Source: a bacterium
Lineage (GTDB): Bacteria > Verrucomicrobiota > Kiritimatiellia > CAIKKV01 > CAIYGI01
DNA: 64,000 nt
Direction of reading: 5' to 3'
Assembly (NCBI GenBank): GCA_025360745.1
Contig: JANYBP010000043.1
Location: 10,455 to 74,454 of the forward strand
Position 1 is the first letter of the stretch. Each line of letters begins with the position of its first letter. A program made the translations under genes and the position numbers. Below the pieces are notes generated by a model. That model saw only the letters and a list, made by a program, of their open reading frames with translations, was not told the origin of the DNA and made no database searches. Of the stretch, positions 8,717 through 57,885 are shown one piece after another.

Positions 8717-8850
8717 GCCCCACCCTTCGCCTCCACAAATACGCAGATAGGTTGTCAGTCGGTATTCTGTTACACTCTAGGCGAAAAACATGCGCGCGAC
8801 CACACATAACTGACAGTCTTCAGCCTAAGCAGCCTTTTGGAGCATCGTTC

Positions 8851-9555
8851 ATGGCCGATATTCCCGTGCAATGTCCCGCCTGCGGCAATCGGTTCCAAGT
8901 CTCGGAATACGCGGATCGGGATAAATTGCTGTGCGCCAAATGCGGCGCGGCCATTCCGCCGCCGGAACAGCAGGCGGTGACAGCGGAATATCCCGCACCC
9001 AAACTGCGACTTGCCACAGCCCAACCCATCATAACGCCCGTCGTGCCGCCGCCAAGCGCGGAACTGAGCGTTACCCAGGCATGGATGCGCCGCCGGCAGC
9101 AACACGCCAAAAGCAAATCCTCGCGCCGCCATCTATCGCTCCTGACCCGGCTCAATTCCTCCACCTGGTCTAATTGGGCAATTTTCATCCTGCTCGCGGG
9201 GGTCGGCATCTACTTGCGTTTCTTTGCGCCGATGTCCGCCGCATTGCATGGCGAGTTGCGTTACTGGGGCGCCATGGCGCTGCTGGCCTGTCACATCACG
9301 ATCGTCATTTCGGCGTTTTCGGACGAGACATTTCAAGGCATACTGTGTCTGCTGGTTCCAGTCTATTCGCTGTATTATCTTTACAGTTTATCCGACGAAC
9401 ATTTTTTGCGCGCCATCATGGCGGCCCTGGCCCTGGCCTTCGGTATGGATGCCTGGCAGTATTTGAACGCCATTACCAACGATGTCTTCGACGGCGTCAA
9501 TCGCTGGATGCAGGCCGGCGGCGATACGAGCAATCAACGCATTTACGGGCGCTGA
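8851..9555 (+). CDS. Zinc-ribbon domain membrane protein (hypothetical)
   Basis: CPACGNRF...CAKCGA zinc ribbon followed by Pro-rich linker and 3-4 TM helices. ATG 8851 is preceded by GGAG. Confidence 0.6.
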   Translation: MADIPVQCPACGNRFQVSEYADRDKLLCAKCGAAIPPPEQQAVTAEYPAPKLRLATAQPIITPVVPPPSAELSVTQAWMRRRQQHAKSKSSRRHLSLLTRLNSSTWSNWAIFILLAGVGIYLRFFAPMSAALHGELRYWGAMALLACHITIVISAFSDETFQGILCLLVPVYSLYYLYSLSDEHFLRAIMAALALAFGMDAWQYLNAITNDVFDGVNRWMQAGGDTSNQRIYGR

Positions 9556-9581
9556 GCTGGAGGGTGGAAGGTGGGCCAGTT

Positions 9582-10763
9582 TCAGACTTTAACCATCACC
9601 TTGGCGCTGTTTCGCAATCCAGCCGCGCATCCGATCAAGAGCCCATAAACCAGCACCAGTTTGGCGTCGCCAAAATTATATTCCACCAACCCGTTCAGCA
9701 GCAGCGCGCAAAATCCCAGCAGCAGCGCCAGCGAGAGCATGCCTTCCGCGCCCGCGGAACGGCGGGTGCGTCGAAACAGACCGACTGCGTCCAGCAGCGC
9801 CGCGCCCATCCAGGCCAGGTAAAGCGCGAGGCCGATCCAGCCGGTGGAAACCACCATTTCAACCGGGTTGGAGTGCAGATGGTCGCGGTCCGGCTCGATT
9901 TCCGGGACGATGCGGCGGTAGTCATCGTTGGTGAGCGAACGGTACCCCGCCCCACACCACGGGTGTTCGCGCACCAGCGCCGGGGCCAGCTTCGTCCACA
10001 TCGTCATGCGTCCGCCCCGCCCCGCATCGAACTCGTCCTCCAAAGCCTGCAGGCGGTGCTGCATCGGCGGCAGCGACAGCAAAACCACAAGCGCCGCCGC
10101 CAGGCCAAGCCAGGCTTTCCAGCCACCGCGCACGGCCAGCAGAACCGCCAGCATGGCCGCGGTTGCAAACCAGGCGCCGCGCTTGAAACTCAGCGCCAGT
10201 GCCAGCCCCGTCAGCGCCGCCACCAGCCACCACCAGGCGGGGCGGCCGCCCAGCCGGCGCACCGCCATGATGAATCCCAGCGCCAGAATCAACCCCACCA
10301 TGCAGCGCTGACTGTCGGACATCGAGCCCGTGTTCACCAGAGCCGTCATGAAGTCCGGCTGTAACCCGGCCTGCCAGGTTTTCCAAGCATGCCAGGGCGC
10401 CAGCACCAGCGTTCGCAGCGCCACCAGCGACGCGCCGATCGCATAGGCGCCCAGCACGGTTGCCAGCCGATCTGAAGTCGTCACCAGCCAGCCGCCGGCC
10501 AGTGCGCCCGCAAACCAGAAAAGTTTTGTCAAACACGGCACGCCGCGGTACGGATCGACGCCATAAACCGTCACGCCAACGGCCCAGGCCAAAAACACAA
10601 GATAGAGCCAGCCGCTCGGTGCGAGTGTCACGGATGCACGCCTCCTCACGCGATCGACAACGAACATCAGCAAAGTCACCGCCAGCATAACCCGTCCAAA
10701 AGGCAGCGAGAAACCGGCGAAAAACGCCGAGGCCGCAAAACAGATGAAGAGCGTTTGTTCCAT
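9582..10763 (-). CDS. O-antigen ligase family protein (Wzy_C / WaaL-like polymerase/ligase)
   Basis: About 10 TM helices with a large periplasmic loop. Typical O-antigen ligase topology and composition. Confidence 0.75.
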   Translation of the reverse strand: MEQTLFICFAASAFFAGFSLPFGRVMLAVTLLMFVVDRVRRRASVTLAPSGWLYLVFLAWAVGVTVYGVDPYRGVPCLTKLFWFAGALAGGWLVTTSDRLATVLGAYAIGASLVALRTLVLAPWHAWKTWQAGLQPDFMTALVNTGSMSDSQRCMVGLILALGFIMAVRRLGGRPAWWWLVAALTGLALALSFKRGAWFATAAMLAVLLAVRGGWKAWLGLAAALVVLLSLPPMQHRLQALEDEFDAGRGGRMTMWTKLAPALVREHPWCGAGYRSLTNDDYRRIVPEIEPDRDHLHSNPVEMVVSTGWIGLALYLAWMGAALLDAVGLFRRTRRSAGAEGMLSLALLLGFCALLLNGLVEYNFGDAKLVLVYGLLIGCAAGLRNSAKVMVKV

Positions 10764-10786
10764 GGTTTGCCTTTAAATCGACGACC

Positions 10787-11068
10787 TCATCGTCTTACCG
10801 GCGTCTTGTAGGTAATGCGACCGTCTCGAACTGTCAAAATAACAGCTATGATTGGACCTTCTGGGTCTGTGCGAAACGCATGATTGTGCGTAATCGTCCC
10901 GTCTTCATTCGTATGAACATAAAAATCAATTCCCAGCAGAGGAGCCACTTGGACGTATTCGCTTCCCAAAACTATTCTGTCATAAACCACCTGTTCTGGA
11001 TTATTTTTCTGACCACCGCATCCGCTCGCCGTCCAGAGCAGAAGAAGGAAAATGCACAAGCGCCGCAT
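10787..11068 (-). CDS. Small lipoprotein (hypothetical)
   Basis: Signal peptide with lipobox LWTASGC. 93 aa. In the low-GC islet. Confidence 0.5.
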   Translation of the reverse strand: MRRLCIFLLLLWTASGCGGQKNNPEQVVYDRIVLGSEYVQVAPLLGIDFYVHTNEDGTITHNHAFRTDPEGPIIAVILTVRDGRITYKTPVRR

Positions 11069-11108
11069 TACGCACCTCCCACCATGGCAAATAAAACTTT
11101 TTAATTCT

Positions 11109-11537
11109 CTACTCTCTGCCGATCTTTATCGGCGCTTTCTGAGCGACACTCATTCTACCCACAAAATGCAAACAGGCTGAAAGCCCTCCGATCATCAAAG
11201 CATTTGCATACGTTGTCCAGCGCACAGTTAAGGCTGTGCTGGTATAATTATAGACCATAGCGCAAACCACACCTACAGTCAGGATAAGACCCACGGCAAG
11301 TTTACCTACAGTGTTTTCATTCACAATTGGGTTCCCTAATCCCCGTTCACGTTCAATACGATGCCGCACCAGCATCGCAATCCCGTGAATGAGCAAAACG
11401 ATTGCAGCACCACACACCACATCGATCCACATTGAACGCCTCAATGTCTCCAGCATATAGAGTGACACCCCCCCAAGAACGACTACCATTCGCCGACGAT
11501 TCGTTCTTTTTTTGCCATCACAAGTCATATTTGCCAC
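11109..11537 (-). CDS. Small multi-pass membrane protein (candidate immunity protein)
   Basis: 3-4 predicted TM segments. No recognisable domain. Downstream of the toxin-like gene on the same strand. Confidence 0.45.
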   Translation of the reverse strand: MANMTCDGKKRTNRRRMVVVLGGVSLYMLETLRRSMWIDVVCGAAIVLLIHGIAMLVRHRIERERGLGNPIVNENTVGKLAVGLILTVGVVCAMVYNYTSTALTVRWTTYANALMIGGLSACLHFVGRMSVAQKAPIKIGRE

Positions 11538-11594
11538 TCTATTTTCCTATCAGGTTATAACGAAACACCAAAAACTTTGTTCCCACCCAAACAC

Positions 11595-11897
11595 CTACTC
11601 GCAAAACATCGAGCCCGCAGTCAGCACACCCTTGACTTTTTCTCGGAGTTTTCTCAACAACGCCAAGAATAAACCTGCCATCGCCCCGATGACTGCATTC
11701 ACCAGAAAGCAGAATGGAAGAAGTCGCCATGCGAGATCCAGTCCTTTTCCGCTGTGCGCAAATTGGCACCCCCTTCGTGCCTGCATCCGACTATTTCGAG
11801 TGGCCACAATGCTTTCGTTCGCCGGTGAATGCACCAATGACGGCCCATGTGGTTTGCAAAACGCCAGAGACAACCCATCCGAAAAGTAGTGAGACAA
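11595..11897 (-). CDS. Small membrane protein (uncertain; may start at internal Met about 11786, or be fused by frameshift to 11791..12150)
   Basis: Hydrophobic C-terminal half (LLPFCFLVNAVIGAMAGLFLALL). Overlaps the upstream ORF by about 107 nt in another frame. Confidence 0.3.
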   Translation of the reverse strand: MSHYFSDGLSLAFCKPHGPSLVHSPANESIVATRNSRMQARRGCQFAHSGKGLDLAWRLLPFCFLVNAVIGAMAGLFLALLRKLREKVKGVLTAGSMFCE

Positions 11898-12150
11898 CTA
11901 CATCGATTGCTGAGAACAAGAAGGTAAAGCAAATGCCCCAAATACCCACCACAGCCTTCGGCGTGTTTCCCGAGAACACAAATAGTACATCTTCCGGAAA
12001 GCACTTCCACCACTCCAGCAGACTTGGAGGAGGTCCCTTCACTCGACTGCCGAAATCGACGAACATCAAAGTTATAAAAATCAATGTCGAGATTGTGAAC
12101 CACAGTGGTCTACATGCTATTATCTTGGATCTCAAAATTGACTGGACCAT
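11791..12150 (-). CDS. Small multi-pass membrane protein (candidate immunity protein)
   Basis: Three hydrophobic segments. Starts 13 nt downstream of the RHS-tail toxin-like gene stop. Confidence 0.45.
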   Translation of the reverse strand: MVQSILRSKIIACRPLWFTISTLIFITLMFVDFGSRVKGPPPSLLEWWKCFPEDVLFVFSGNTPKAVVGIWGICFTFLFSAIDVVVSLLFGWVVSGVLQTTWAVIGAFTGERKHCGHSK

Positions 12151-12162
12151 ACGAAAGACCTC

Positions 12163-12939
12163 TCAATGACATGGGCCAACGTCTTGCGCTGAACAACCCC
12201 CGGTTATGAGTTCCGAGAATTCTGCCCCGGGCCAGAATGCCCGTTCGGTATAAGCCCCTCCTTCTCCGACAACTTGAAGGAGATCTACCCACGAATTTCC
12301 GATCTCAAGCACCTTCACCTTTGTGTCCTGCCAGTTTGCAAGAACCGTTTGGCGCCCCGGACCTGTAGCGCCCTTGGCATATCCCCGAATCGAATCACCA
12401 AGATTATAACTCTTCGCGCTGCCAATTGTCGTATGAACTCCCGCGTAGCCGTCGTATCCGGTCCATTGGGACTGGAACTGCCAGGAACATGTCACAAGAA
12501 AAGTCCTGCAACACGAATGCCTTGCTTTGACCCAGATTCGTGTTTCAGTATCACACAAATAGTTCCTGTAAAAAGGCAACGTTGTGCATGTCACAAATGC
12601 AGCGGCCGAACTACTCTCGCGAGGTCCAGAAGCCCATGCTCGTTTGCTAACCCCCCGATTATTGTCGCAGTCTGACTGCCCCCAAGACTTCCATTCTAAC
12701 AACCCGAGGGGATCCAACATATCTATTGTTCGATTGCGGACAAAAACATACAACGTTGGCGGCGGCGGACTCTTCGGAACCCCTCTGCGAATACCCACGG
12801 AATCGGTTGCATGCCGTTCATCTCCCAACGGATCTCTATTGAGCCATCTTCCCTCGTCCGGATGGTAATACGCTAGGGCCTTAACAACCAAACTACTTAA
12901 AATCAAACAACTCAAAAGAAAATACCGTATGCTTTTCAT
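12163..12939 (-). CDS. Secreted mini-RHS-tail protein: signal peptide plus RHS core-end/DPxGL motif plus novel Cys/Trp-rich C-terminal (toxin-like) domain
   Basis: MKSIRYFLLSCLILSSLVVKALA signal peptide, then YYHPDEGRWLNRDPLGDE ... TLYVFVRNRTIDMLDPLGL. This matches the RHS repeat-associated core terminal consensus (YYDPxxGRWxxxDPxG ... LYxYVxNNPxxxxDPxGL). No YD repeats anywhere. About 170-aa C-terminal domain of unknown family. Confidence 0.6.
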   Translation of the reverse strand: MKSIRYFLLSCLILSSLVVKALAYYHPDEGRWLNRDPLGDERHATDSVGIRRGVPKSPPPPTLYVFVRNRTIDMLDPLGLLEWKSWGQSDCDNNRGVSKRAWASGPRESSSAAAFVTCTTLPFYRNYLCDTETRIWVKARHSCCRTFLVTCSWQFQSQWTGYDGYAGVHTTIGSAKSYNLGDSIRGYAKGATGPGRQTVLANWQDTKVKVLEIGNSWVDLLQVVGEGGAYTERAFWPGAEFSELITGGCSAQDVGPCH

Positions 12940-14530
12940 GACTGCCCCTTTTGTTTTCTGGATCCCTCCAGGAATTTGTATTCATCAGCGTCTGGTACAG
13001 CAATGCCGAGGCAACGGTGCCGTCTTTGGAATCTTTCTTCACTTGATCCCGCATAAGTTGATTAAGTCTAGCAATATCCACGCCCTCCTTCTTCCTCAAG
13101 TTGTCCGCATAAGTTTTCACCGTCGCATGTTGTTTTTCACGCCCGTGTTGCTTGAGACAGAGTGCCCGTAACTCCAAGAAGGCGGCCAGTTCCCTTTTTG
13201 GAGACAGGGACTTCATGTACATTCCCGTTTCGAGTTCCTCCTTGGATATAGGCCAGGGCCACTCCATGTATTCCTGATCCGGATAACAGTTCAACCCTCG
13301 ATTAGTTCCTTCGATATTGAAGCGATCCTTGGCATCTTCCCACCTTACAAATAGGTGGCCTTTGCATTCGACAAGTTTCAGGGGATACCCCAGCCGCCTG
13401 CCGACGGCAACATAGAAGACAGGTAAGGATGCGCACGTTCCCTGATGCGCGGCCTCTGTCAGGCCGTGAATAAAAAGATCATGAGAATTTCCAAAGAACG
13501 AAAAGTCATTGCGGATGACTTCCACCGGTCCAGCCCGCATCTTCGGATCCTTGTTGTAACATACCTTGAAATCTTCCTGGAGGACGCAAATCATCATCAG
13601 AACGCGAAAGTATGCTTCAGAATTATTGAACTCTTCAGGTGTTTTCTGAAATTTGTAGAGATGCCTGTCTGTCTCATGTTTGACCCAAGCCGCCAACTGA
13701 TCGAAATCATTCCGCGTTTTCTCGACATCGAGTTTCTCTGCACCAGGTAGTCCCTTGGCCGCAAGGAGATTGATTTCGGCAATATCGTAGTCTTTCGAGG
13801 ACGCCTTCTTTTCCAGCATCTCGCACAAATTGAGTTCAGCGGTGTCAAAACCCTCGCCAACGGGGTGCGGGCGAATGCCAATCGATTCCTGTTTTGGGCG
13901 AACATCCAAGCCCGGGCCCCGCATAAGCCTCAAATTTTGCTGGTTAATTTCTGCTGTCCGCTGGAGTGACACTTGTCTTAGGCGCTCATTCTGTTGCTGT
14001 ATCTTGTCAGAATATTCATCGTCCGCCGACCTTGCAGACTGCCCGTTCCCTGATGACGTCTGCTTTATGTGTTCTTGTTCCTGTATATTCAGTTGCCCTT
14101 TATTTACTTCCAGCGCTTGCTGTTGGTACTCTTGAAACTCCTTCGTTGTCGCGACCTGAAGTTCGATTCTACTGAGTTCACGTTTCATTTCTATCACGTA
14201 TTCTTGCAGATGCGGCGGAATTGCGTTCGTGTGCGTGGACGATAATGCTTCCAAATTTCTTCTTATTTTCATGGCTCGTAACTCGAACTCGTCCATAGCC
14301 ATCTGTTGATTCACGATGTTCTGTTCATCTTGTTCAAGACTCAGTCTTTTGGCGGTTATGGCAAGTTGCTCCGGGTCTGTGTAACCTGCAACTCTGCGAC
14401 TATTTTGTGCAAAGACTGGAAACTCTGCCAGAACAAGCGGTAGAATGGTTGCAAGTGCGGTTAGCAAGATGCTGACACGCGGGAGCAATCTCGGTTTTCG
14501 TCGCTCGCTACTCATAAAAGCCGTTTGCAA
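12893..14530 (-). CDS. Secreted coiled-coil protein with C-terminal transglutaminase-like cysteine-protease domain
   Basis: N-terminal signal/TM. About 250 aa Gln/Glu-rich coiled coil. C-terminal GTCASLPVFYVAVGRRLGYPLKLVECKGHLFVRWED...FNIEGT matches the transglutaminase-like core (GxC ... ALGIPAR ... HAWVE ... D). 3' end overlaps the next gene by 47 nt. Confidence 0.6.
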   Translation of the reverse strand: MQTAFMSSERRKPRLLPRVSILLTALATILPLVLAEFPVFAQNSRRVAGYTDPEQLAITAKRLSLEQDEQNIVNQQMAMDEFELRAMKIRRNLEALSSTHTNAIPPHLQEYVIEMKRELSRIELQVATTKEFQEYQQQALEVNKGQLNIQEQEHIKQTSSGNGQSARSADDEYSDKIQQQNERLRQVSLQRTAEINQQNLRLMRGPGLDVRPKQESIGIRPHPVGEGFDTAELNLCEMLEKKASSKDYDIAEINLLAAKGLPGAEKLDVEKTRNDFDQLAAWVKHETDRHLYKFQKTPEEFNNSEAYFRVLMMICVLQEDFKVCYNKDPKMRAGPVEVIRNDFSFFGNSHDLFIHGLTEAAHQGTCASLPVFYVAVGRRLGYPLKLVECKGHLFVRWEDAKDRFNIEGTNRGLNCYPDQEYMEWPWPISKEELETGMYMKSLSPKRELAAFLELRALCLKQHGREKQHATVKTYADNLRKKEGVDIARLNQLMRDQVKKDSKDGTVASALLYQTLMNTNSWRDPENKRGSHEKHTVFSFELFDFK

Positions 14531-14718
14531 AATGCGCTGGCGAACAGGTTAAAATGATCTAACTGACAAGGTGATGTGCGCTTCGAGGGCAATATACCAA
14601 GCGAAATCTACGTTAGAAGCAATAGATTGCAAGTTCTTGAACCCGTTTCTAGATGAATTCCGGTTCGGCATGCAGCCGAAATTGGCCCGTCCCCGTCGCC
14701 TTCTTCGGGTTGCCAACA

Positions 14719-15387
14719 TCAAGGGGCGGCATGTTTCCCAACGTCCAATGGAATTACAATGCGCTCTCCAATGACAAGCGCACGCTCAGCGTCAATCCTA
14801 TTGGCCTTCATGATCCCCGCACTGGTGACTCCGAAGGCTTCTGCGACTGTCCGAATGGTATCCCCCCTCTTTGCTATATAAGACATCATGACTTGCTTCA
14901 CATTTTCTGTTATTGATGTTTTGCCATAACCGCCATCGCCATTTTTTACTGGAGCGCGCCCATCGAAGTTATCGCTCAGATCGACAACCCTGGCGCTTTG
15001 TCCCTTGCCAGTTCCCAAAATATCCGTGAGCTGTCCTAGTCGACTGTCGATATCTGCTATAGCCACCTCGTTGTTGAATCCCATTTGCCGCCAACTGATG
15101 CGAATCCGCGTGCCACTTACAAGAGTTGCCTCCACATATTTTTGCGACGTCACGTCAATCTGAACCAAGCGCATGCCTCTATTCCAAGCGCGTTCATATA
15201 ACTGCAACGCCACGCAGAACGATGTCGCGCCGACTATTCTTACCCGGTCTTCTTGCGTGCTGTTCACTGCTTGAGTCGGACTGACGCGCAGACTGTCATC
15301 GTCAGTTCTCTCCACAACCCAAACCGGATCAGCTCCACAACTTACTGCACAAAGCATTACCAATAGGCACGCATGCATATGATTCAT
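14719..15387 (-). CDS. Lipoprotein with C-terminal LysM peptidoglycan-binding domain
   Basis: Lipobox AVSCG. C-terminal YIAKRGDTIRTVAEAFGVTSAGIMKANRI...GERIVIP is a LysM motif. Confidence 0.7.
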   Translation of the reverse strand: MNHMHACLLVMLCAVSCGADPVWVVERTDDDSLRVSPTQAVNSTQEDRVRIVGATSFCVALQLYERAWNRGMRLVQIDVTSQKYVEATLVSGTRIRISWRQMGFNNEVAIADIDSRLGQLTDILGTGKGQSARVVDLSDNFDGRAPVKNGDGGYGKTSITENVKQVMMSYIAKRGDTIRTVAEAFGVTSAGIMKANRIDAERALVIGERIVIPLDVGKHAAP

Positions 15388-15480
15388 ATACGTCTCCAGA
15401 AAAAGATGGATGCGGAAAGCGACCCATACATCGCTCGTTAATTTCCATGGTTATTCGCCTGTAACTGGTGTTTCAACATA

Positions 15481-16503
15481 TTACAACGCCCAGGCGATCA
15501 GTCGCCAGTATCCGGCCAGCAGGGCGCCGGCTACGCCCGCCAGGCGCGCGGACAGGCCGCCGCGCACGCCGGGGGGCGGATCAGGGCGGCCGCCGCACAG
15601 CAGTTCCCTGTCCGAAACGAGTTTGCGCGGCACGAAGGCGCGCCGCTTGCGCAGCGCCCCGGAAAGCCCGCACAGCGCATGCCAGGCGCCGCGCGCAAAT
15701 TCCCCGCCCTGCCCCTTGAACAGGAAGAATACGCCGGCGCAGGCCTGATAAAAGATCAGCGCGGGCAGCGCCAGCCAGAGGGTTTTGGAATCGTAATGCC
15801 GCACCACGAACCACCAGCGGTTGCGGGTCTGCAGCGCGATCCAGCGCGTCCCGCGCGGACGGGCCATATGATACGCCAGCGCCGCGGGCGCCGCGTAACA
15901 GGGATGACCCAGGGCCGCCATACGGAATGCCAGGTCCCCATCTTCCCATCCGAAAAACAGATCCTCGTCAAAAGCATCGGCGGCCAGGGCCGCCGACCGG
16001 TTGTAAAGCGCCGCGCCCGCGGAAACCGTGCCGACCCGCGCGGGCTCATCGCCGCGGGGCCGGTAGACCACCACCTCGGCGGCGTAGTGCAGAAAGGCCC
16101 CGCAGTACTGCATTGTTTGCGGTTCGGCATGCAGCCGGATCTGCCCCGTCACCGCACCCGCGCCGGGTTGTGCCGCGAAAACCGCCGCCAGCCGTTGAAC
16201 GTAATCCGGGGCCAGCACGAGGTCGTTGTCCATGATCAGCACGAGTTCCGTTTCCGCCGCGCGCAGCGCCGCGTTGCGCGCCGGATTCGGACCGCGGTTG
16301 TCCGGCATTTCGATCACCTGGACCCGTCCGGCATAACGCGCGCGCAGCAGTGACAGGGAATCGTCCGAGGAGTGGTTGTCCACCGCCAGAATCGAATGCA
16401 AAACGATGCCAGTCTGGGCCAGCACGGAATCGAGGGTTGGCCCGAGCACGGCTGCGCCGTTGTAGTTGATCACCGCGACGGTGATGCCGGCGGCGGCGGT
16501 CAT
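15481..16503 (-). CDS. Glycosyltransferase family 2
   Basis: VAVINYNGAAVL...DNHSSDDS...DNDLVL GT-A fold motifs (DxD). Start ATG overlaps the stop of the upstream deacetylase gene (ATGA 16500-16503). Confidence 0.85.
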   Translation of the reverse strand: MTAAAGITVAVINYNGAAVLGPTLDSVLAQTGIVLHSILAVDNHSSDDSLSLLRARYAGRVQVIEMPDNRGPNPARNAALRAAETELVLIMDNDLVLAPDYVQRLAAVFAAQPGAGAVTGQIRLHAEPQTMQYCGAFLHYAAEVVVYRPRGDEPARVGTVSAGAALYNRSAALAADAFDEDLFFGWEDGDLAFRMAALGHPCYAAPAALAYHMARPRGTRWIALQTRNRWWFVVRHYDSKTLWLALPALIFYQACAGVFFLFKGQGGEFARGAWHALCGLSGALRKRRAFVPRKLVSDRELLCGGRPDPPPGVRGGLSARLAGVAGALLAGYWRLIAWAL

Positions 16504-17843
16504 GACCGGCGGGCTCCGGCCGCGGACGGCGCGGGAAGGTGCAGGTTGGAAGGTGGAGGTTGGAGGGTGGAAGGTGGAGGGTGGAGGGTGGAAGGTGGAG
16601 GGTGGAGGGTGGAAGACGAATCGGTTCCAGCAGTACTCGGGGACGGCGCGGCGATGCGCACGGCATAGGGGAGCAGAACGGCGCGACGATGCACGGAGAG
16701 GGAACTGCTCACCGCCAGGCGGCGGGCGGCGCCCGCGCCTTCACGCCAGGTCGCGCCCACCGACAATTCGCATGCGCCCGGCGTCGCGCTGTCCGGAACG
16801 ACCAGCGGCACTTCCATAACCTGCGCCCACATGTCCGCCCCCTCCGAAAGCACATTATCCGCCTGCGCCAGCATGCGGCCACGCTGGCGCAGGTGGATGA
16901 ATCCGACCAGAGCGGAGGACTCCGCCTCCGCGGGCACGGACCAGTAACACCGCAGCAGCAGGCGTTCGCCTGGCGCGACGGGACCCTCCGGCGCGCCGAT
17001 TCCCAGCAGCGTGACGCCGCGATCGAAGGCCGCCAGCGGCGCTTCGGCGCGGGCGATCAATTCCGGCACGGTCACAAAGGTGTAACCGCGCGCCTTAAGC
17101 GCCGCCAGCACCTGTTCCAGAACCTTGACCACCACGGCGCGGTTGAATCCCAACTGGGTATCGTGTCCATCGTGCAGCAAAAGAATGGCGCCCGAACTCA
17201 CCCGCCGCAGCATGTAATCCGCCATGACTTCCGGCGGATCGTTATGCCAATCGTAGGCATGCACCGAGACGCCGACATTGATCTGGTTTTCGGCCCGGCA
17301 CAGTCCCGCCAAACCACGATAGCGGCGGTCGGCGGCGCTGACGCCAACGGCCTTGGCGCCCGCCTCCTCATCCGGCCCGAAAATGCCGAAGGGATCGCGA
17401 AATAACACCGGACGCACACCCGTCACGGCGGCGATGGCGTCGGCGCCGTGACGGATCTGGTCGCGCCGTTCCGCATACGAAATCCGGTCGAAGCGCGGAT
17501 GGTCGTAGGAGTGGTTGCCGATCGCATGGCCGGCCTGCAACATACGCCGCACCGTGTCCGGACTGCGTTCGACATTGGTGCCGACGAGGAAAAAAGTCGC
17601 CCGCACCGACTCGCGGTCGAGAACGTCGAGCACCTGCGAGGTGTAGGGTTCATTCGGACCATCATCGAAGGTAAGCGCCACCACGCGCCCCGCAACCGGC
17701 ACATAACTTACAAGATCGCCCGCTTGAGGCCTGAAGGGCAGCCGTTCCGGTCCGCGGCATCCCGCCAGCGCAAAGACAGCGATAAAAACGAGCACGGAGG
17801 CACAAAGGGCTTTAATAGCGCATCGCACAACTTTCATGCGCAC
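16500..17843 (-). CDS. Polysaccharide deacetylase (NodB/CE4) lipoprotein with Pro-rich repeat tail
   Basis: Lipobox LAGC. NodB motifs TFDDGP...HSYDHP. C-terminal (STLHPPP)n tail encoded by a GGTGGA-type tandem repeat. Confidence 0.85.
   Translation of the reverse strand: MRMKVVRCAIKALCASVLVFIAVFALAGCRGPERLPFRPQAGDLVSYVPVAGRVVALTFDDGPNEPYTSQVLDVLDRESVRATFFLVGTNVERSPDTVRRMLQAGHAIGNHSYDHPRFDRISYAERRDQIRHGADAIAAVTGVRPVLFRDPFGIFGPDEEAGAKAVGVSAADRRYRGLAGLCRAENQINVGVSVHAYDWHNDPPEVMADYMLRRVSSGAILLLHDGHDTQLGFNRAVVVKVLEQVLAALKARGYTFVTVPELIARAEAPLAAFDRGVTLLGIGAPEGPVAPGERLLLRCYWSVPAEAESSALVGFIHLRQRGRMLAQADNVLSEGADMWAQVMEVPLVVPDSATPGACELSVGATWREGAGAARRLAVSSSLSVHRRAVLLPYAVRIAAPSPSTAGTDSSSTLHPPPSTLHPPPSTLQPPPSNLHLPAPSAAGARRS
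16541..16620. repeat. Tandem GGTGGA/GGGTGGA-type repeat (coding, Pro-rich tail); a dispersed second copy of the motif lies at 47150-47200
   Basis: ttggaaggtggaggttggagggtggaaggtggagggtggagggtggaaggtggagggtggagggtggaag seen directly in the sequence. Confidence 0.8.
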
Positions 17844-31500: not shown

Positions 31501-31788
31501 GAGGGCGGTCTGACCGCCCAGCGTCGGCAGCAGCGCGTCGGGACGTTCGCGGCGAATGATCTCGCGCAGGATGTCGCAGGTCAGCGGTTCGATGTAGGTG
31601 CGGTCGGCGAACTCCGGATCGGTCATGATCGTGGCCGGATTGCTGTTGACCAGCACCACCTCATAGCCCTCTTCGCGCAGGGCCTTGCAGGCCTGCACGC
31701 CGGAGTAGTCGAACTCGCAGGCCTGCCCGATCACGATCGGGCCCGAGCCGATCAGCATGACTTTCTTTATATCTGTACGTTTTGGCAT
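28501..31788 (-). CDS. carB: Carbamoyl-phosphate synthase large subunit
   Basis: [30 protein letters not shown]... canonical CarB N-terminus. Duplicated ATP-grasp halves. About 1095 aa. Confidence 0.95.
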
Positions 31789-31797
31789 TTTAATAAA

Positions 31798-31826
31798 CGA
31801 TGAACGATGAATGATGAACGATGAAG
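31798..31826. repeat. Left arm of inverted repeat, (CGATGAA)x4, bracketing the four-helix-bundle gene
   Basis: cgatgaacgatgaatgatgaacgatgaag. Its reverse complement lies at 32215-32242. Confidence 0.75.
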
Positions 31827-31845: not shown

Positions 31846-32220
31846 TCATTGCTGTTTCCTTTTTTTTGCGGTAATTACGGAAGCGGTGAAGATTGCTATG
31901 AGTTCTTCCGTTTCGTCCAACAGCCCTTGCATCTCATCTGACAGAACGGTTTTACTGCCGACCAGCAGTTCCAACCAATATACAGTCTCATCCAACTCCT
32001 GCAGACCACCCTCCATCTTGCTTATGAACTCAGCCGTGGAACGCGCTCGGGACGCTTCGCGATGGTGCGCACCAACCGACGTTCCGCTTCTCAGCACTTG
32101 CTTTCCAAGAACCTGGGCCACGGACGTTTTCGCTAAAGAACAATACATTCGGATAATCCGCAGTGAATATTCCTTCAGCCTCTCTTTCAAATCCCAAGGT
32201 TTCTGTTTTTCCGCATTCAT
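31846..32220 (-). CDS. Four-helix-bundle protein (23S rRNA intervening-sequence protein family)
   Basis: EYSLRIIRMYCSLAK...QVLRSGTSVGAHHREASRARSTAEFISKMEGGLQELDETVYWLELL is typical of the family. Confidence 0.8.
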   Translation of the reverse strand: MNAEKQKPWDLKERLKEYSLRIIRMYCSLAKTSVAQVLGKQVLRSGTSVGAHHREASRARSTAEFISKMEGGLQELDETVYWLELLVGSKTVLSDEMQGLLDETEELIAIFTASVITAKKRKQQ

Positions 32221-32242
32221 CGTTCATCATTCATCGCTCATC
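32215..32242. repeat. Right arm of inverted repeat, (TTCATCG)n, overlapping the start codon of the four-helix-bundle gene
   Basis: cattcatcgttcatcattcatcgctcatc. About 21 contiguous complementary bases with the left arm. Confidence 0.75.
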
Positions 32243-43645: not shown

Positions 43646-43661
43646 GGGGCGTTCTCCAAAA

Positions 43662-43735
43662 GGGTGCAGGGTTCAGGGTTCAGGGTTCAGTGTGCAGGGT
43701 TCAGTGTGCAGGGTTCGGGGTTCAGGGTTCGGGAA
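43662..43735. repeat. Heptanucleotide microsatellite, (GGGTTCA)n about 9-10 units with GTGTGCA variants
   Basis: cagggttcagggttcagggttcagtgtgcagggttcagtgtgcagggttcggggttcagggttcggg, immediately upstream of the VOC gene start. Confidence 0.85.
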
Positions 43736-43783: not shown

Positions 43784-43917
43784 GTAATGGGTCAGTTACG
43801 CGGTGGGACCGCCTGAAGGCGGTACACCAAACGCGGGAATAATAAGAAGTAATGCCGTTTGGTGTACCGGCTTTAGCCGGTCTTTAGTCCACCTCCCCTA
43901 TGTCACTGACCCATTAC
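43784..43917. mobile_element. MITE-like miniature inverted-repeat element (134 bp) with 13-bp TIRs and 8-bp flanking direct duplication CGCGGAAC
   Basis: Left: cgcggaac|gtaatgggtcagt... Right: ...actgacccattac|cgcggaac. Internal nested hairpins (ggtacaccaaacg...cgtttggtgtacc; ccggctttagccgg). Confidence 0.6.
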
Positions 43918-46631: not shown

Positions 46632-46759
46632 CGCTCTGCGCCTCGCCTGAGGCGCACGGTCGGGGCGGAGTCCAAACGGACTTCGCCCTGCTTGTTTTAA
46701 GCTCTCGCCTGCCGTAGCATGACGGCATGAACGGTATGCCAATACCATTCCATCTGGCG

Positions 46760-47254
46760 ATGTTCTTCGGGTCCGACGGCCCCATGGAATGGATGATCGT
46801 TGCCCTGGCCGTGCTGATGCTCTTCGGCAGCCAGCGCCTGCCGGACATGATGCGCACCCTGGGTCGCCTGAGCGCCAAGCTTTACCGCGCCCGCGACGAG
46901 TTTCGCAAAGAATTTCAGAAAGCCATCGAACTGCCGGATGAATCGGAGGTCGGAGATCGGAGGCCAGAGGTCGGAGATCGGACATCGGAAGTCGGAAGTC
47001 AGCGGGCGGAGGTCGGAGAGCATCCCGATATGACATCCTGTCTACCTCAATCCAATTCTAAACTCCAACTTCCGGCATCTTCCATCCCGACGGCTGACGT
47101 TCAACATCAATCCTTCGAACTTTCGAATACCACCGCCGACCCATCACATTCCACCCTCCACCTTCCACCCTCCACCCTTTACCCTCCACCCGGCCCCGCT
47201 GACCTCAAACCTACGGCCACCGGACCAGGCCATACCTCGGAGTTCGAGGTATGA
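46760..47254 (+). CDS. tatA: Sec-independent translocase TatA/TatB-family protein with extended repeat-containing C-terminal tail
   Basis: MEWMIVALAVLMLFGSQRLPDMMRTLGRLSAKLYRARDEF is a TatA/B TM plus amphipathic helix signature. The tail has EVGDR-type repeats (46936-47010) and a STLHLPPSTLYPPP segment (47150-47200). Stop overlaps tatC start. Confidence 0.75.
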   Translation: MFFGSDGPMEWMIVALAVLMLFGSQRLPDMMRTLGRLSAKLYRARDEFRKEFQKAIELPDESEVGDRRPEVGDRTSEVGSQRAEVGEHPDMTSCLPQSNSKLQLPASSIPTADVQHQSFELSNTTADPSHSTLHLPPSTLYPPPGPADLKPTATGPGHTSEFEV

Positions 47255-48051
47255 GCATGCCGGATGCATACAATGGTCGTTTGCCGGAAGTGCCGGAGGC
47301 TCCCGTAGAGGGCGGCCCCTACAAACCTTTTTTGGGACATCTGGAGGACCTGCGCCGCATGCTCCTGCGCAGCGCCACGATCGTCGCGCTTTTGTTTTGC
47401 GCGGCCATGGCTTTTGCGCCGCAACTCTTTGCATTCTTAAAATGGCCCCTGCGCCGGGCGGCGATCGATCCTGATCGTTTCCTGCTCGCCTTCACCGTGA
47501 CGGGCGGTATTCAACTATGGATGCAGATGGCTTTTGGGGCGGCGATTGTGGCCAGCGCGCCACTTTTGCTGGCGCTCTGGACGGCCTATCTACTGCCCGC
47601 GCTGAGAAAGCGCGAGCGGCAGTTGCTGGTTCGCGGATTGTTGCTCGGCGCCCTGCTTTTTCTTGCCGGCGCCGCGCTCGCCTTCCTGGTTTTGCTGCCA
47701 CCCACCCTGCGCGTGATGCTGGATATTTACGCCTGGCTGGGCATACCGGTGACTTTCTGGACGGTGGACGATTATGCCGGCTTCTGCCTGAAACTGATGC
47801 TGGCCTTCGGCATCACTTTCGAGATGCCAGTTTTATTGCTGGCACTGGGTTATCTCGGCATCGTCACCGCCGCCCAATTGGGGCGCTTCTGGCGGCATGC
47901 CATCGTGATCGCGCTGATCGTATCCATGGTCGTCACGCCCACCACTGACCCCGTCAGCCAACTCGTGCTGGCCGCCCCGCTGGTGCTGCTCTATGCGCTC
48001 AGCATCCTGCTGCTCTGGCGGCACGAACGACGACAGGCGGCGGGGATGTGA
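47251..48051 (+). CDS. tatC: Twin-arginine translocase subunit TatC
   Basis: Six TM helices. LEDLRRMLLRS TatC N-terminal motif. Confidence 0.9.
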   Translation: MSMPDAYNGRLPEVPEAPVEGGPYKPFLGHLEDLRRMLLRSATIVALLFCAAMAFAPQLFAFLKWPLRRAAIDPDRFLLAFTVTGGIQLWMQMAFGAAIVASAPLLLALWTAYLLPALRKRERQLLVRGLLLGALLFLAGAALAFLVLLPPTLRVMLDIYAWLGIPVTFWTVDDYAGFCLKLMLAFGITFEMPVLLLALGYLGIVTAAQLGRFWRHAIVIALIVSMVVTPTTDPVSQLVLAAPLVLLYALSILLLWRHERRQAAGM

Positions 48052-50590: not shown

Positions 50591-50594
50591 GAGG

Positions 50595-50765
50595 CAGAAG
50601 CCAGAATTCAGAATTCAGAATGAATTCCCTGTTTTCTGGAGGGTCGGGCTTGCAACTCTGCGAAGCAGCGCTTCGCTGCGTAGCACGAGCCTTCTGACTC
50701 CTGAATTCTGCCTTCTGGATTCTGCCTTCTGGATTCTGGCTTCTGGATTCTGGCTTCTGGAACTG
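50595..50765. promoter_or_regulatory. Highly structured intra-operon spacer: long imperfect inverted repeat built from (CTTCTGGATTCTGG)n tandem units around a perfect GCGAAGC-AGC-GCTTCGC hairpin
   Basis: ccagaattcagaattcagaa ... gcgaagcagcgcttcgc ... ctgccttctggattctgccttctggattctggcttctggattctggcttctgg read directly. Confidence 0.55.
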
Positions 50766-57556: not shown

Positions 57557-57885
57557 TCGTAACCGCCATGCGCGGGAATAAGGGGTTCGACGCTCATCGC
57601 TTCAGCGCCTCACGGGACCAACGGACGCCAAGCGGTCATGGATGCGGTTTTCGACTCCTCAGGGTAAAAACGTGGCTGCATTCCATCCATGCTGTTGGAT
57701 TTTGGGGGGCACATGGCGGGGTTGCAAGCAAAAATGCGCCACACGCTGGTTATGCTAGCGGAATCACGTCCCGACATTCGACATTCGATAATGGCGGGGC
57801 GGGGACGCGCACGCTTGATTTCGTCCAACTTTCCGTTAGGCTTAACCCCATTCAGAAAACAGGCACACAATAAGAGCGTGGAAAA

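Follow-up and report, generated by a model that had tools for sequence, protein, structure and literature searches.

Proline-rich tails of a polysaccharide deacetylase and of TatA as probable read-through products of heptanucleotide arrays at gene junctions in a bacterium of the PVC group

Many bacterial genomes contain an excess of simple sequence repeats (SSRs) with heptameric units, for which polymerase slippage has been put forward as an explanation; most of these SSRs lie between genes and near the ends of open reading frames (ORFs), and they vary in length among close relatives (PMC4692102). The long heptanucleotide SSRs of Mrazek and co-workers (2007), in so far as they are summarized in two later papers (PMC4692102, PMC4679880), show an excess of period 7, arrays of many units and length changes in 7-nt steps, and polymerase slippage is their proposed origin. 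The same three features were found in a 64-kb stretch of contig JANYBP010000043.1 (hereafter the window) from a lineage of the Planctomycetes-Verrucomicrobia-Chlamydiae (PVC) group, probably Kiritimatiellota, as judged from the names of homologues (Kiritimatiellae/Verrucomicrobiota). In contrast to the long SSRs of these summaries, the arrays of the window belong to a PVC-group host, and two array sites are read through as ORF tails, one in a polysaccharide deacetylase gene and one in tatA. All defining features of prokaryotic heptanucleotide SSRs that were tested were present, i.e., at least three tandem copies, an excess of period 7, location at gene junctions and length differences between relatives in multiples of the unit. 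The arrays are ordinary members of a known repeat class, here in a new lineage; no description of heptamer SSRs in a PVC-group, probably Kiritimatiellota, lineage was found. An earlier reading of this DNA from its letters (the sequence-only reading) had noticed a shared proline-rich repeat at the 3′ ends of the two genes and had attributed it either to a short repetitive element that inserts into or extends 3′ ends or to convergent selection for a periplasmic tail. As set out below, the shared tails are likely to be heptanucleotide microsatellites at gene junctions that are translated incidentally, and to be neither an element that seeks out 3′ ends nor a selected periplasmic spacer.

The sequence shared by the two tails was shown to be a tandem 7-nt unit, CCACCCT/CCACCTT, with three array sites in the window:

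16534-16613, minus (coding) strand: CCACCCT/CCACCTT array at the end of the deacetylase ORF; period 7 and 11.4 copies in Tandem Repeats Finder (TRF); unit on the plus strand GGAGGGT
47150-47191, plus strand: array B, TCCACCC/TCCACCT, in the tatA tail; period 7 and 6 copies (TRF)
9556-9574, minus strand: third array of the CCACCCT unit, CCACCTT CCACCCT CCAGC, about 2.7 copies, non-coding

With one mismatch or less, the 12-mer CCACCCTCCACC has 14 matches in the window against 0.27 expected, and none of 100 shuffles reached 14. The matches cluster at 16552-16612 (minus), 47151-47176 (plus) and 9556-9574 (minus) in steps of 7 nt, and a lone extra match with one mismatch is found at 32006-32017. 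This count and translation of the ORFs confirmed that the repeat is present in both 3′ ends and that the translations quoted for it were correct. The 12-mer itself, which had been taken as the unit, is replaced by the heptamer, as TRF assigns period 7. Neither is the motif confined to two places, as the third array occupies the 26-nt gap between the convergent genes for a Zn-ribbon protein (8752-9555, plus) and Wzy_C (9582-10763, minus).

Three heptamers make up 21 nt, so that each reading frame of such an array encodes one identical 7-aa repeat. CCACCCT encodes PPSTLHP, that is, the STLHPPP repeat, and GGAGGTC, the unit of a further array in tatA, encodes GGRRSEV. Both units are stop-free in all frames and on both strands, which AACGATG and GAACCCT, units of other arrays in the window, are not. 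The tail is thus proline-rich because a C-rich, stop-free heptamer occupies the coding strand and all three frames can be read.

The first junction consists of two genes:

16500..17843, minus strand: polysaccharide deacetylase ORF, 447 aa, with its stop overlapping the start of the next gene (ATGA)
15481..16503, minus strand: family-2 glycosyltransferase (GT2) gene, directly downstream, with a 4-nt overlap with the deacetylase stop

The deacetylase array is translated as about four STLHPPP repeats, and 31 nt remain between its end and the GT2 start. The Pfam match covers residues 51-169, and an AlphaFold2 model (15 homologues) is confident up to the last strand at 388-397, with a predicted local distance difference test score (pLDDT) below 50 for residues 403-447. 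These residues correspond to about 16503-16637 and are a non-conserved tail that is predicted to be unstructured, the fold ending at about residue 397. The codon-position GC signal fades at about 16700-16760, before the array, and in an alignment distant deacetylase orthologues from Kiritimatiellae and Verrucomicrobiota (about 380 aa) stop about 45 aa sooner. Since none of the three frames of the tail contains a stop, the frame would stay open without selection. In a relative with 85% identity (P0002), which was compared as protein only, the repeat is 14 aa shorter (42 nt, six heptamers). A 76% relative has a degenerate repeat in the protein and, in the DNA of the junction (L002), the related heptamer CCACCTC in about six units, a 75% relative has no tail repeat in the protein and traces in the junction DNA, and a 70% relative has no repeat in either. 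These graded junction arrays indicate that the deacetylase array arose and expanded in place. In other phyla, many homologues are single proteins with both a Polysacc_deac_1 and a GT2 domain.

The second junction has two arrays with different units, of which the first (array A) is additional to the repeat noticed in the sequence-only reading:

46727..47254, plus strand: tatA ORF, 175 aa, the tail of which runs into the tatC start (ATGA overlap)
47251..48051, plus strand: tatC gene
46943-47018, plus strand: array A, GGAGGTC/GGAGATC type, 10.9 copies (TRF), inside the tatA tail (reads EVGDR...)
47019..47149, plus strand: spacer between arrays A and B, 49% GC, with no stop in the tatA frame and one and two stops in the other frames

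The TatA_B_E Pfam match covers TatA residues 18-47 only, and the codon-position GC signal ends at about 46900-46920, before both arrays. Array B is translated as STLHLPPSTLYPPP, and 60 nt separate its end from the tatC start. The closest tatA relatives, on contigs L179 and L180, have a TatC in the same 90% cluster as that of the window and contain array A, the spacer and a CCACCCT array B in the same order. With 12.4 vs. 10.9 copies, their array A exceeds that of the window by two units (14 nt), which shifts the frame so that TatA ends at a TGA right after array A, at 95 aa; an untranslated gap of 275-375 nt before tatC then holds array B. The latter has six units in the window, four in L180 and 6 + 4 in L179, where a 99-nt tandem duplication includes the array and its flank. 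The DNA of the tatA junction is translated, partly translated or untranslated according to array copy number. Comparison of tail lengths among relatives thus gave a shorter or no tail for the deacetylase, and 95 aa (L179/L180) vs. 175 aa for TatA.

Some further observations concern the surroundings of tatA. The more distant relatives L005, L007, and L008 contain a true inverted pair, (GAGGTCG)n-loop-(CGACCTC)n, at the tatA tail, with a significant predicted fold (z = -3.95 to -4.2). This hairpin (L005 1418-1505, L007 296-428, L008 525-585) lies in an ORF that is open to the tatC start, i.e., it is a translated hairpin between tatA and tatC. For the window, pairing of array A with array B in RNA (GGAGGUC with CCUCCAC) was considered and rejected, the fold being no better than that of shuffles (z = +0.33). 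Downstream of tatC, L179 and L180 have about 300 nt before the gene for an ABC ATPase, and this gap contains a (TAGGTGG)5 array (L179 3166-3205, L180 2028-2064); in the window, the two genes overlap without such an array.

It was considered whether collapse or expansion of repeats in this metagenome-assembled genome (MAG) had created the arrays or the open frame. Two short-read (Logan) contigs, L126 and L127, do break in the deacetylase array, each at positions 1-36 (about 16555-16590 of the window), at a perfect 21-nt duplication. The break makes the copy number uncertain in 21-nt steps only, and an error of this kind would alter the length and keep the frame. As far as they reach, both contigs are identical to the deacetylase array of the window. 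An independent assembly (L001) has the tatA locus with both arrays base-for-base identical, on a contig seen in eight samples, and the same arrays were found in relatives from other studies. An assembly artefact is therefore extremely improbable.

The two tails are probably incidental, unstructured read-through products of junction DNA. We propose that this PVC-group, probably Kiritimatiellota, lineage carries many short arrays of 7-nt units at its gene junctions, each site with a unit of its own, and that these arrays lengthen and shorten in place by 7-nt steps, most likely by replication slippage. At fixed loci, the length differences between relatives were multiples of 7 nt (14 nt for array A and 42 nt for the deacetylase tail). 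A stop-free array that follows the last conserved codon of a gene and precedes the next stop in frame would simply be read through, and translation of each tail would be set by the copy number of the arrays upstream of it.

A different explanation is that two envelope proteins acquired a proline-rich spacer or linker convergently, under selection, as the sequence-only reading had suggested for a periplasmic tail. The repeat is genuinely encoded by both ORFs, and tatA tails are open in frame in four more distant relatives. The deacetylase array has a 21-nt super-period (91% match in TRF), which is consistent with in-frame growth: its self-match is best at lag 21 (0.92, vs. 0.82 at lag 7), whereas two intergenic arrays peak at lag 14. 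The lag-21 peak fits growth in frame-preserving steps; as a signature of frame constraint it is no more than suggestive, since arrays A and B of tatA show no clear lag-21 signal. Several results argue against selection on the tails. A tail is missing, shorter or different in the orthologues, so that a conserved proline-rich linker was not found, and in the closest tatA relatives the array is not translated. The deacetylase tail (403-447) is predicted to be unstructured by its low pLDDT, the tails lack a codon-position GC signal, the CCACCCT unit is also found in non-coding DNA, and the same peptide results from any frame of the C-rich heptamer. The two tails would also lack a common compartment. 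By the established topology of TatA, its C-terminal region is cytoplasmic. The claim that both proteins are exported hence fits the deacetylase, which from its letters appears to have a lipoprotein-type signal (an N-terminal helix and an LAGC lipobox), and would not fit the TatA tail. Selection for a shared proline-rich tail is highly improbable.

The sequence-only reading was right in that repetitive DNA, and not protein homology, lengthens both ORFs; insertion of this DNA was not supported. An element resembling a miniature inverted-repeat transposable element (MITE) or a repetitive extragenic palindromic (REP) sequence, which carries a CCACCCT array into gene 3′ ends, might explain that the unit is found at three sites in 64 kb and in many phyla, and the 99-nt duplication in L179 spans the array together with its flank. 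However, the three CCACCCT sites share neither flanks nor termini, no terminal inverted repeats or target duplications were detected, and no inverted repeats bracket the arrays at 16534 and 47150. Relatives have arrays at the orthologous positions with diverged units and graded copy numbers, and BLAST searches with the cores and flanks returned orthologous loci only. A mobile element of this type is very unlikely.

A preference for 3′ ends was not found either. One scan for (CCACCYT)3, with one genome per species, detected at least 117 loci in many phyla; none of those listed is from the window's own species. Among the matches listed, the phyla Omnitrophota, Bacteroidota (Prevotella), Gemmatimonadota, Planctomycetota, Chloroflexota, Verrucomicrobiota, Kiritimatiellota, Acidobacteriota, and Proteobacteria were represented, with 111 arrays of the CCACCYT unit, 68 arrays of other heptamers and at most 13 arrays for any other period. 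The 111 CCACCYT arrays were distributed as follows, compared with a positional null from the same loci:

inside a long ORF: observed 36%, null 72%
no long ORF: observed 32%, null 10%
just upstream or at the N-terminus of a long ORF: observed 21%, null 11%
C-terminal tail of a long ORF: observed 11%, null 6%

The CCACCYT arrays are thus about threefold enriched in intergenic DNA and about twofold at gene boundaries of either kind, 5′ or 3′; the 3′ end is not specifically preferred. Likewise, arrays of the window are also found upstream of start codons and between convergent genes. One side observation from these matches concerns an Omnitrophota MAG, nzgw332 (L026, L046, L066), in which arrays of about 30 nt of CCTTCCA/AGGTGGA recur in very long frames that run off the ends of the loci; in L026 they are spaced at about 630-1650 nt, and their role may be that of linkers in a giant repetitive protein.

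The two tail loci are part of a wider set of period-7 arrays. When the window was scanned for periods from 4 to 13, five strong arrays were found at period 7, and no other period had more than one. In 25 kb of contigs from relatives, which were fetched through their proteins and not through the repeats, nine period-7 arrays and none at other periods from 4 to 12 were found. Besides the arrays above, the window contains the following:

43661-43730, plus strand: AGGGTTC array, 10 copies, with 15 nt between it and the downstream start of a glyoxalase-family gene (minus strand)
50592-50760, plus strand: inverted array pair CAGAAGC/CAGAATT ... ATTCTGC/CTTCTGG, occupying the whole space between the genes for an ABC permease and a periplasmic-binding protein (Peripla_BP_4)
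31796-31825 and 32216-32242, minus strand: inverted array pair AACGATG / CATCGTT, bracketing a small gene between pyrG and carB
57772-57788: short CGACATT array

The arm at 50691-50760 has 10 copies at period 7 (TRF), and the pair of which it is part encloses a core of about 70 nt and is predicted to fold into a long hairpin (-82 kcal/mol, z = -5.2). All arrays of the window were located at gene boundaries or in non-conserved ORF tails, and their units differ from site to site (CCACCCT, GGAGGTC, AGGGTTC, CTTCTGG, AACGATG). A search against Rfam gave no match at the gathering threshold anywhere in the window.

Several points weigh against a purely neutral microsatellite that is translated by chance. 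Slippage is deduced from the length differences in multiples of 7 nt. Three of the about nine arrays in 64 kb have one and the same unit, which an independent origin of each array does not obviously predict; there may be a mutational, structural or functional bias toward the CCACCCT unit, which is also recurrent across phyla. Four more distant tatA relatives have a tail ORF that is open as far as tatC, against 13 stops in the other frames, so that translation through the tatA-tatC junction may be favored in part of the lineage. Further, the arrays of the window that are pyrimidine-rich in the mRNA sense, five in number, all precede a start codon (carB, Peripla_BP_4, glyoxalase, GT2 and tatC), with 8-60 nt between the array end and the start. 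This start-proximal placement hints at a cis role that a neutral microsatellite does not explain.

The arrays could accordingly be cis-acting leader or coupling elements, or 7-nt changes could switch the frame of the upstream ORF and thereby alter translational coupling, in the manner of a slow phase variation. Such a role is compatible with a microsatellite origin. In addition to the placement of the five arrays, it agrees with the arrays being predicted as unpaired, with the two-unit difference that toggles TatA between 95 aa followed by a gap of 275-375 nt and 175 aa overlapping tatC, and with predicted effects at the deacetylase junction, where a slip of -2 units would fuse the deacetylase in frame to GT2 and a slip of -1 unit would read across GT2 out of frame. 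It also agrees with TAACTGA repeats, which are found a few nt upstream of starts and have been proposed as translational regulators (PMC4679880). Against a cis role, the array at 9556-9574 has no downstream gene, and the orientation of arrays upstream of ORFs is only weakly biased across phyla (15 C-rich vs. 8 G-rich among the matches listed), with the arrays in C-terminal tails being mostly G-rich. No rapid switching is evident from the tatA locus, which is identical in the independent assembly with its contig in eight samples, and no sequestration of a downstream ribosome-binding site is predicted. The latter had been considered for the CCUCC-rich array and was rejected, as the arrays stay unpaired in predicted folds. 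We regard a cis role as rather unlikely on present evidence.

Incidental translation of junction microsatellites remains the preferred explanation, and it can be compared with several known systems. The AGGGTTC array is very similar in type to the G-rich heptamers GGGAATC of Xanthomonas and GGGGA(C/T)T of Nostoc, which are about 90% intergenic, lie near ORF ends and have strands with a strong G/C asymmetry (Rehm et al., 2015; PMC4692102). Each of those genomes has a single dominant unit, dispersed in more than 100 copies, whereas several units coexist in the window. Formation of G-quadruplexes was demonstrated for the Xanthomonas and Nostoc type (PMC4692102); regularly spaced G runs can be read from the sequence of (AGGGTGG)n and (AGGGTTC)n. 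In marine Beggiatoaceae, cyanobacteria, and Bacteroidetes, TAACTGA repeats stop a few nt short of start codons, a placement similar to that of arrays of the window; 14 sets overlap the end of the upstream ORF, a geometry like that of deacetylase/GT2 and tatA/tatC, and indels between strains occur in 7-nt increments, as in the relatives studied here (MacGregor, 2015; PMC4679880). The TAACTGA unit carries stops and is present in 2-6 copies (PMC4679880), whereas the units of the tails are stop-free and reach 11-12 copies. The likeness to the TAACTGA type is one of start-proximal geometry only (8-60 nt) and not of family membership, since the TAACTGA unit is not present.

Cyanobacterial short tandemly repeated repetitive (STRR) sequences differ from the arrays of the window in their units and phylum. 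As in the window, several tandem heptanucleotides per genome, non-coding, are mentioned for Calothrix PCC 7601 as cited in PMC4692102. The tandem repeats of Borgs (PMC9879509) resemble those of the window in their origin in place, fast evolution and creation of new, disordered low-complexity protein segments. They differ in that strong selection for disordered regions was described there, whereas the evidence from the window favors incidental translation, and in that the 7-nt unit of the window preserves the frame only in multiples of 21 nt. In SSR contingency loci, such as those of Haemophilus influenzae, a change of units shifts the frame, as for TatA with 175 vs. 95 aa, and thereby switches the carrier gene (PMC12721329, PMC2651432). 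In contrast, the arrays of the window lie 3′ of the functional domain, after the deacetylase fold (397 of 447 residues) and after the TatA_B_E core (18-47), so that only the tail changes and the carrier is not switched off; among the assemblies compared, no polymorphism within populations was seen.

With regard to annotation, the C-terminal extensions of the deacetylase and TatA ORFs should not be taken as domains. ORF lengths at such junctions depend on array copy number, which is poorly resolved by short-read assemblies, and the arrays fragment assemblies. The known phenomenon of heptamer SSRs is extended to a PVC-group, probably Kiritimatiellota, lineage, and the tatA junction offers a clean natural example of a two-unit change that turns an intergenic array (TatA of 95 aa in the closest relatives) into coding sequence (175 aa in the window). 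For the tails themselves little is at stake, proline-rich tails being a by-product of junction microsatellites.

The inverted pair near carB was found to bracket a gene of a widespread type:

31846-32220, minus strand: 23S_rRNA_IVP (four-helix-bundle) gene, hereafter IVP, bracketed by arms at 31799-31825 and 32216-32242

IVP is a functionally uncharacterized domain, known from rRNA intervening sequences that are excised by RNase III, and the four-helix-bundle genes are very common (bioRxiv 10.1101/2024.02.27.582315). In the window the arms are 27 nt long, 96% complementary and themselves heptamer arrays, and 8 nt separate the 3′ arm from the carB start. The same tight bracket was present in 28 of 40 distinct metagenomic IVP homologues (40-91% identity; loci L128-L178). 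The 5′ arm is purine-rich (GATGAAC, GATGAAT, GATGAAG, and GCAGAAT types), typically with an ATG and often with a TGA in each unit, and in most loci ends within about 40 nt on either side of the start codon of the gene. The complementary 3′ arm starts 0-30 nt past the stop, and in 14 of 25 testable loci it ends at most 30 nt before the start of a co-oriented downstream ORF. Where the 3′ arm is next to a downstream start (window 31788-31825; L136, L143, L160, L170, L177, and others), no obvious Shine-Dalgarno sequence was seen. The IVP loci gave 40 period-7 arrays and none at other periods. No description of a heptamer-array bracket around IVP genes was found in the searchable literature.

These brackets raise the question whether the heptamer arrays in general are the arms, paired or orphaned, of widespread and so far undescribed hairpin cassettes whose usual cargo is an IVP gene. 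The layout of such a cassette would be a purine-rich array with an ATG and a TGA in every unit, an ORF and a complementary pyrimidine-rich array that usually adjoins the start of the next gene. If this were true, the inverted pairs without cargo (at 50592-50760 and in tatA tails of relatives) as well as the solo arrays, those of both tails among them, would be relatives or remnants of cassettes, and a dedicated mechanism would make, bind or process the arrays, e.g., RNase III-type excision like that of rRNA intervening sequences or binding by the IVP protein. We regard this general explanation as doubtful. The inverted pair at 50592-50760 resembles an IVP-type bracket without a gene; that cores between paired arrays might be decayed IVP genes was considered and rejected, as no similarity to IVP was found. 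A tblastn search for IVP homologues beside CCACCYT arrays found none among the 117 loci listed. The conserved heptamer bracket is a concrete handle on the nature of IVP cassettes and could matter more than the tails; it is the item that most deserves separate study.

Two minor observations concern other parts of the window. Beside the AGGGTTC array, in the intergenic region between the glyoxalase gene and tonB, a 27-nt inverted repeat (GACCGCCTGAAGGCGGTACACCAAACG / CGTTTGGTGTACCGGCTTTAGCCGGTC; 43807-43882) with 89% complementarity and a 22-nt loop was found, which may be REP- or terminator-like. Further, the composition of the region 10764-15480 is unlike that of the rest of the window, and no ORF in it passed a crude gene filter based on GC content at the third codon position; within this region, a LysM-domain gene (14719-15387) is called in another assembly.

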